DNA of 64,000 bases from Candidatus Bruticola papionis (GTDB lineage: Bacteria > Vulcanimicrobiota > Xenobia > Xenobiales > Xenobiaceae), in contig DHKB01000034.1 in assembly GCA_002407045.1 (NCBI GenBank), forward strand, positions 37,786 to 101,785, given 5' to 3'. Below, one piece after another: positions 25,253 through 25,468 of this stretch. Below the pieces are notes generated by a model. It was not told the origin of the DNA, searched no databases, and saw nothing but the letters and a program-made list of their open reading frames with translations. The first letter of the stretch is position 1. Every line of letters begins with the position of its first letter. Both the position numbers and the translations under genes were made by a program.

Positions 25253-25468
25253 TTATTCTTTTGAGCGTCGCCTAGCTTGCCAAAGACGTTCAAACTCAGC
25301 AGCTTTAGCTTCTCGTTGAGCGCGTTCGTCTGCTGGTAACAAATCCTTGATGTCGCTTTTGCTTAAAGACGCGATTTCACTCTCTCGACGCAAAGCTACA
25401 GTATCTTCAGAAGCAGCGGCAGCCGCCTCCTCTAATGTTATTTCAGCTTGATTTTGTTGTTCGCTCAT
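25253..25468 (-). CDS. Small acidic helical protein (71 aa) translationally coupled to the ART-like gene; candidate immunity/chaperone/antitoxin
   Basis: The ATG lies 3 nt after the ART gene's TAG stop, with GAGG ~9 nt upstream. The protein is charged and low-complexity helical (EEAAAAASED...AQREAKAAEFERLWQARRR). Confidence 0.5.
   Translation of the reverse strand: MSEQQNQAEITLEEAAAAASEDTVALRRESEIASLSKSDIKDLLPADERAQREAKAAEFERLWQARRRSKE

Follow-up and report, generated by a model that had tools for sequence, protein, structure and literature searches.

Known ART systems and their partner proteins

In the pairs TreX-TriX and Tre1-Tri1, the R-S-ExE ADP-ribosyltransferase (ART) is blocked by a 7-residue alpha-helix of TriX or Tri1 that is inserted into its active site (PMC11606950). 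The gene of TriX, an unannotated ORF, follows that of the toxin directly; the protein bears no recognizable sequence signature and folds into a compact beta/alpha wedge, and Tri1 carries an ADP-ribosylhydrolase domain (PMC11606950). Both TreX and Tre1 are C-terminal domains of Rhs/T6SS proteins with proven bacterial targets (FtsZ), according to PMC11606950 and to Ting et al. 2018 as cited there. In the stretch of 64,000 nucleotides analyzed here, called the window below, an R-S-ExE ART is likewise directly followed by a cognate ORF. In contrast to TreX-TriX and Tre1-Tri1, however, this partner has 71 aa, two helices and no enzymatic domain, and unlike TreX and Tre1 the ART is free-standing, with a disordered N-terminus and no T6SS in view. 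By TM-score, the nearest solved structure to the ART domain is that of Listeria monocytogenes Lmo0066 (PDB 8za7), deposited as “ART-ARH type toxin effector-immunity protein pair”; the title of the entry assigns the immunity protein to the ADP-ribosylhydrolase type, whereas the partner described here has no such domain.

The ART of the window shares fold, Pfam family and the R/STS/ExE motifs with clostridial and staphylococcal C3, with C2-I/iota Ia and with Certhrax. The C3 exoenzymes, C2-I/iota Ia and Certhrax have Sec signals or B-components and target eukaryotic Rho or actin, and we know of no immunity or partner gene for them; unlike these toxins, the present ART has no signal peptide and is accompanied by a conserved partner. 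In the colicin E-Im, barnase-barstar and SPN-IFS systems the activity of a secreted enzyme is suppressed, within the producing cell, by a small acidic protein whose gene adjoins that of the enzyme. The Im and IFS genes lie immediately downstream of the enzyme gene, and the inhibitors of these systems are globular proteins of 85–160 aa. The logic proposed below for the present pair (cytoplasmic folding, co-synthesis and block) would be the same, but the 71-aa partner is a hydrophilic helix-loop-helix protein, and no sequence or fold relation to Im, barstar or IFS was found. A further group for comparison are the secretion chaperones, which include T3SS class I chaperones, the YscE/PscE two-helix co-chaperones and flagellar FliS/FliT. 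The partner resembles YscE-type chaperones in being small, acidic, helical and encoded beside a signal-less putative substrate with a disordered N-terminus; it showed no detectable homology to secretion chaperones, however, and other proteins with the same N-terminal motif as the ART are partnerless. That a toxin-like enzyme is followed by the gene of a small cognate partner is an arrangement already known, while the partner family itself is unannotated. Our literature search on Lmo0066, ART-ARH, Xenobia and UBP9 found no functional information on this pair.

The ART gene and the 71-codon ORF

An initial annotation of this DNA had described an acidic, helical 71-aa ORF that is coupled to an ART-like gene, starts 3 nt past its stop codon and is followed by a bidirectional terminator, so that both genes would make up a discrete transcription unit; an immunity protein or a chaperone had been suggested as the product of the ORF. 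The elements in question are the following:

25472..26506, minus strand: gene of the 344-aa ART, a C3-like mono-ADP-ribosyltransferase (ADPrib_exo_Tox), with its stop codon TAG at 25474-25472

25253..25468, minus strand: gene of the 71-aa small protein, an acidic two-helix putative ART partner of an unannotated family, ending with TAA (25253)

25477..25480, minus strand: GAGG Shine-Dalgarno element of the small ORF, 8 nt before its ATG and within the ART codons for E-A near the end of the ART

25196..25235, no strand: bidirectional intrinsic terminator, ΔG −16.6 kcal/mol, z = −5.7

Start codon position and GAGG element can be read directly off the sequence: the ART runs into the small ORF as TAG (25474-25472), TTT (25471-25469) and ATG (25468-25466), which leaves a gap of 3 nt with both ORFs in the same reading frame, a point that the initial annotation had not mentioned. 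The description of the products holds as well, the small protein being acidic (pI 4.9, net charge −4.5) and helical according to the AlphaFold prediction, and the upstream protein matching Pfam PF03496 (ADPrib_exo_Tox) with E = 1.8e-19 and 70.3 bits versus a gathering cut-off of 23.4. The terminator hairpin begins 17 bases past the stop codon of the small ORF and has an A-run on one side and a U-run on the other; its z-value was calculated against 200 shuffles. It separates the ART pair from a convergent pseudopilin gene (24491-25147, plus strand), and because it stands between the two it confirms both the bidirectional terminator and the two-gene unit. The ART gene and the small ORF share this one terminator, and none but this follows the pair. 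Terminator hairpins of differing, unrelated sequence were found at the same place after the pair in orthologous loci of several lineages. The reading of the locus that the sequence supports is that of two separate, translationally coupled polypeptides.

The upstream protein belongs to the C3-like ARTs

We compared the catalytic motifs of the ART in an alignment of 12 ART homologues (A6), in which the following codons were assigned:

25871..25873, minus strand: catalytic Arg212 (LYR motif), invariant in A6 and aligned with the catalytic Arg of C2-I

25712..25720, minus strand: S263-T264-T265 (STS motif), invariant in A6 and aligned with the STS of C2-I

25586..25594, minus strand: E305-E306-E307 (ExE motif), of which E305 and E307 are invariant in A6, aligned with the EQE of C2-I

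An ExE motif is typical of arginine-specific ARTs. In the AF2 model, residues ~125–344 form the catalytic domain (pLDDT ~90), and the N-terminal part up to residue ~125 is mostly disordered (pLDDT <50 for residues 1–66 and 86–123) with one confident isolated helix, which we term amphipathic, at residues 70–82 (pLDDT 87). A Foldseek search with the ART domain gave C3 exoenzymes, Certhrax, C2-I and 8za7_B as matches, with E-values down to 3e-11 for C3bot, and thus a C3-like fold. The highest TM-score was obtained for 8za7_B (Listeria Lmo0066; TMt 0.81, 25% identity), and 8za7 was also the top PDB sequence match of the ART (E = 2.9e-5). No Sec-type hydrophobic signal was found over the first 80 aa, where the Kyte-Doolittle value reaches a maximum of 0.69 (15-aa window). 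Values of dN/dS were 0.08–0.12 in unsaturated comparisons (Nei-Gojobori). The upstream gene can be assigned to the well-known ADPrib_exo_Tox family as a new and divergent member.

The small protein represents an unannotated family

With dN/dS values of 0.07–0.25 (Nei-Gojobori, unsaturated comparisons), the 71-codon ORF is by its pattern of substitution a real gene under purifying selection. A word-index search with the small protein yielded near relatives only (72–100% identity, all of them 71 aa), one of which is annotated as “hypothetical protein” in “bacterium UBP9_UBA11836”. Further members of 66–74 aa came from a profile search, and an exhaustive HMMER scan of 1.84 billion representatives gave 16 matches only, 14 of them with a length of 57–89 aa. 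Altogether the family comprises ~30 clusters of 57–89 aa. There was no Pfam or NCBIfam match at E ≤ 1 and no PADLOC family; a profile search of the PDB gave non-significant matches only, a fold search with the model of the small protein gave none, and neither did searches of phages and plasmids. A protein of 71 aa and two helices without a Pfam or NCBIfam match at E ≤ 1 has no ADP-ribosylhydrolase or macro domain and is therefore not of the enzymatic ART immunity type. In these searches the family appears to have no detectable relatives outside this ART context.

Conservation within the family is concentrated in one segment:

25322..25390, minus strand: codons of the conserved core (residues 27–49), R-x-x-S-E-[IV]-x-x-[LV]-x-x-x-D-I-x-D-L-L-P-x-x-x-R, the proposed ART-binding segment

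Ten positions (R27, S30, E31, I40, D42, L43, L44, P45, R49 and E60) are invariant in 19 aligned members. Purifying selection is focused on this central 23-residue segment, and the flanking charged helices are variable. The AlphaFold model, calculated with the alignment as input, consists of helix 3–33, loop 34–45 and helix 46–70 (pLDDT 74, pTM 0.33), with the conserved motif spanning the end of helix 1, the loop and the start of helix 2. The model thus describes a helix-loop-helix protein that is predicted to have neither a confident compact fold nor a hydrophobic core. All family members are acidic (pI 4.5–6.3) and very hydrophilic (GRAVY −0.4 to −1.5).

Some well-known classes of small proteins are not matched by these properties. 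T3SS class I chaperones are acidic alpha/beta proteins of ~120–150 aa, whereas the present family is all-helical with 57–89 aa and has only the acidic pI in common with them. WXG100/T7SS proteins are helix-turn-helix proteins of ~100 aa with a W-x-G loop; the loop of the small protein reads S..DI.DLLP without WxG, and there was no Pfam WXG100 match. Type II antitoxins are not matched either: a DNA-binding domain (RHH, HTH, AbrB or Phd) was not detected, and the gene follows that of the ART, whereas antitoxin genes usually precede the toxin.

One metagenome variant of the small ORF (L028, 2284-2502) carries substitutions at otherwise invariant positions (RERAIASLSKREIKELLP); it represents either a sequencing error, the contig being of low coverage, or a relaxed copy. 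The core SE..LS..DI.DLLP..ER weakly resembles repeated SDIRSLTxEDLxELLPG units in P0046 (865 aa) and P0049 (591 aa), two long eukaryote-like proteins whose SAM-like repeats match at E ~1e-6 with a score summed over the repeats. A weak resemblance also exists to the N-terminal helix-turn-helix of archaeal/eukaryotic uS19 (PDB 9o17_AU, E = 0.1). Probably these likenesses go back to a widespread helix-capping and turn motif rather than to homology.

Linkage of the two genes across related loci

ART loci were gathered independently of the small ORF, by exact-protein look-ups and by using the ART alignment to scan species-representative genomes and metagenome contigs. An intact small ORF was located directly downstream of the ART in 35 of 36 loci, the window included, corresponding to 22 distinct protein sequences. 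The distance between the two genes ranges from −4 (ATGA overlap) to +17 nt in these 35 loci; a purine-rich GAGG/GGAG element precedes the small ORF in nearly all loci, and its own start codon is always kept. ART identity within the paired loci reaches down to ~50%. All family members with readable context stand behind an ART, and no orphan copies of the small gene were seen among them. In one lineage (loci L008 and L012) the pair is found beside histidine kinase genes and not beside the pseudopilin cluster, which demonstrates that both genes stay together where the neighbors differ. The loci originate from human gut (Hadza, HGM), goat rumen and other ruminant MAGs, and two of the ART homologues are labeled Candidatus Bruticola, class Xenobia, phylum Vulcanimicrobiota. 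Overall the pair is vertically inherited, syntenic, slowly evolving and under strong purifying selection. A mirror-tree comparison of the partner gave r = 0.95 with the ART N-terminus and r = 0.97 with the catalytic domain, phylogeny dominating both values.

The initial annotation had proposed to look for the pair in related genomes and had named an ART retained without the small ORF as evidence against a partnership. The pair with its coupling geometry is conserved in 35 of the 36 ART loci, and the opposite case was found once. This exception (L026, rumen MAG RUG807, 1711-3084) encodes the most divergent ART, a protein of 384 aa with 42% identity and intact catalytic motifs that carries an insertion near the C-terminus as well as a 13-aa C-terminal extension. 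It is followed by a 219-nt spacer and a protease-like paralogue on the same strand, and no member of the small-ORF family is present in the available 5.8 kb. Strict essentiality of the partner is disfavored, because an intact ART persists here without an adjoining small ORF; the partner may not be indispensable, unless it is encoded beyond these 5.8 kb or elsewhere in that genome.

In a contig of 987 nt (L035, 1-987), the 5′ part of a GH57-like gene is connected, out of frame, with an ART that is truncated at its N-terminus, and a 61-aa family member follows. This is probably a chimeric assembly, and it was left out as evidence.

N-terminal motif and neighboring genes

The surroundings of the pair contain the following features:

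26486..26506, minus strand: N-terminal motif MHISSVG of the ART, a candidate export signal, conserved in all ART homologues

27008-27040 and 28740-28775, plus strand: copies of this motif in the two neighbors, MIGSINSVN and MLNSISSVS

27002-28483 and 28740-30206, plus strand: tandem paralogues of ~490 aa with HEVGHAILD ... GLHEAFGD, a thermolysin-like HExxH...ExxxD pattern

19930-25147: prepilin-type (N_methyl) cluster including unusually large proteins of 340 and 801 aa without other domain matches

56776-57903: PilT-like T2SSE ATPase

The motif follows the consensus M-x(0-3)-I-[SN]-S-[VIL]-[NG] and was present in the ART homologues of L007, L008, L010, L012, L015 and L026. Among the ORF N-termini of the window it occurs in the ART and the two ~490-aa neighbors only. 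None of these three proteins has a Sec-type hydrophobic region, and the motif may be a signal for a Sec-independent export route. It is loosely similar to MASISSLG, with which the flagellar cap protein FliD begins. Both motif-bearing neighbors (27008 and 28740) have no small partner gene, so the partner tracks the ART domain and not the presumed export signal.

For the ~490-aa paralogues we obtained no significant Pfam match (Peptidase_M13 remained below threshold, E = 0.067) and no PDB sequence match. Their synteny with the ART pair extends to most related loci, and we regard both as candidate co-effectors. The prepilin cluster is syntenic with the pair in three ART lineages. Apart from the pseudopilins and the PilT-like ATPase, no secretion apparatus linked to the pair was found in the window; T3SS and flagellar genes are absent from it, and the pair does not lie in a mobile-element context.

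The partner as a possible inhibitor of the ART

The explanation that we favor, tentatively and with somewhat less than even confidence, is that the 71-aa protein would be dedicated to the ART, being produced along with it in stoichiometric amounts and binding it, and that it would most likely act as a non-enzymatic inhibitor, in function an immunity protein against an exported, self-toxic enzyme. Since it has no Sec signal peptide, the ART would probably fold in the cytoplasm of the producer with an intact R-S-ExE site, and for the same reason we propose that an inhibitor or immunity protein would be needed. The small protein would be made from the same mRNA by translational coupling with its own GAGG. 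Its central segment SE[IV]..L...DI.DLLP...R, which would form a short helix with a variable charged helix on either side, would bind the catalytic domain, and this binding would block the NAD+/substrate cleft until the ART is exported by a pathway that might recognize the conserved N-terminal MxISSVN motif. By analogy with Tri1/TriX, the conserved DI.DLL mini-helix could act as a plug of the active site.

Several observations argue for such an inhibitor. The small ORF accompanies the ART in 35 of 36 loci, also where the neighborhood differs; the two window neighbors with the same N-terminal motif have no such partner, which thus goes with the ART domain; Tri1 and TriX offer a precedent for inhibition by a short helix; the ART is signal-less, with the catalytic residues R212, S263-T-T and E305-x-E307 invariant; the order of toxin and partner, the coupling and the shared terminator correspond to the layout of effector-immunity pairs; the nearest solved ART structure (8za7_B) was deposited as the effector of such a pair; and selection on the central segment between variable charged flanks is what would be expected of a docking motif. 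Other observations count against an inhibitor. L026 has a catalytically intact ART without a small ORF in 5.8 kb. The high hydrophilicity and the absence of a predicted core (pTM 0.33) are atypical of globular immunity proteins; Tri1, TriX and the ARH of 8za7 are all larger than the 71-aa partner, and two of these three are ADP-ribosylhydrolases. The vertical, syntenic and slow evolution without orphans is unlike that of the usual interbacterial polymorphic toxins. Furthermore, C3-like toxins with eukaryotic targets normally need no immunity protein.

We consider it rather unlikely, and present it as a conjecture, that the partner founds a class of minimal non-enzymatic ART inhibitors in which the DI.DLLP helix or an invariant Arg plugs the R-S-ExE site as a pseudo-substrate, and that the pair is part of an unrecognized effector set of Xenobia in the human and ruminant gut, composed of one ART and two thermolysin-like proteases that would share the MxISSVN signal and a Sec-independent route.

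Should the 71-aa protein inhibit the ART without being an enzyme itself, it would add a new variant to the ART immunity proteins, would rank among the smallest ART-neutralizing proteins known and would offer a short peptide motif for inhibiting C3-like ARTs. A chaperone, on the other hand, would hint at a route of export not described so far. Xenobia (UBP9) belong to the gut microbiota of humans and ruminants and have been neither cultured nor studied experimentally; an ART with a conserved partner, encoded beside two motif-sharing protease-like proteins, would provide a testable handle on their interaction with host or competitors.

Alternative explanations

The main rival of an inhibitor, rather unlikely in our view, is a dedicated export or stability chaperone (adaptor) that would bind the ART, e.g. 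at helix 70–82 or at the catalytic domain, without catalytic inhibition, and would either keep it export-competent or deliver it to a secretion pathway. A small acidic protein beside a signal-less effector with a ~125-residue disordered N-terminus and a single helix (70–82) would suit this role, as would the acidic character of the whole family (pI 4.5–6.3); two-helix chaperones of similar size exist (YscE/PscE, ~66 aa), and a chaperone could be lost beside an intact ART, as in L026, more readily than an immunity protein. However, the two neighbors with the same N-terminal motif have no partner, the small protein has no hydrophobic core that could form a groove (GRAVY about −1), searches of Pfam, NCBIfam and the PDB (sequence and fold) gave no match to any chaperone family, and the window links no secretion apparatus to the pair beyond the pseudopilins and the PilT-like ATPase. 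The invariant residues R27 and R49 of the partner, together with the ExE motif of the ART, would also fit an endogenous ADP-ribosylation system to which the small protein belongs as substrate, pseudo-substrate or regulatory subunit; Arg27 and Arg49 would then be the (pseudo-)acceptors, and the pair would have a cell-intrinsic role without a toxin. We give this reading little credence: the vertically inherited, syntenic pair under strong purifying selection is closer in character to a housekeeping module than to a locus for warfare, and neither a mobile-element context nor a match in the phage and plasmid searches was found, but the disordered N-terminus and the motif common to the two protease-like neighbors point to export, no precedent was identified in this analysis, and the invariant arginines are equally explicable as binding residues.

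That the ORF encodes an unrelated small protein, for example a helix-hairpin-helix-like binder of nucleic acids or ribosomes that merely shares the operon with the ART, appears very improbable. Its core is weakly similar to the uS19 helix-turn-helix (E = 0.1) and to the SAM-like repeats of the two eukaryote-like proteins (E ~1e-6), but these matches are non-significant or depend on summed repeats; moreover the family was never seen away from an ART, and the partner stays with the ART in a changed neighborhood. Even less credible is stop-codon read-through, by which the 71 codons would form a conditional C-terminal extension of the ART (TAG-TTT-ATG in the same frame). The frame is common to both ORFs in the window and in most close relatives, and a database protein of 417 aa (P0009) reads from the ART through Q-F into the small protein; the contig DNA of P0009, however, has TAG at the junction. 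Among relatives TAA, TAG and TGA all occur as stop codon of the ART, the frames of the two ORFs are offset by 0, +1 or +2, and in one lineage the genes overlap by 4 nt (ATGA); it is because frame and stop codon vary in other lineages that we regard read-through as unlikely. In addition, every small ORF has retained a start codon of its own and almost every one a purine-rich Shine-Dalgarno element, and TAG is an ordinary stop codon that ends 13 of 42 genes in the window.

Apparent fusion protein and other features of the window

P0009 (L011, 4434-5687) could be taken for a natural fusion of ART and small protein. We rejected it as a gene-calling artifact, since the contig DNA carries TAG where P0009 has Q; evidently its gene caller used a code with TAG as a sense codon. 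Genome-wide recoding of TAG was likewise ruled out, given the 13 of 42 window genes that it terminates. We used this 417-aa pseudo-fusion for an AF2 prediction with P0009, the ART homologues and P0001 as input (A5), in which confidence was low at the conserved loop and the small region was effectively represented by a single sequence.

Within the ORF at 27002-28483, a match to the fluoride riboswitch was obtained at 27094-27159 (plus strand) with 19.7 bits, below the gathering threshold of 34 (E = 0.044); this is most likely a chance match. At the start of the window (4-11984, plus strand) there are two very large ORFs with PKS/PUFA-synthase-like domains, one with at least 4 tandem ACPs, KR and DH, the other with KS, AT and multiple FabA-like domains.
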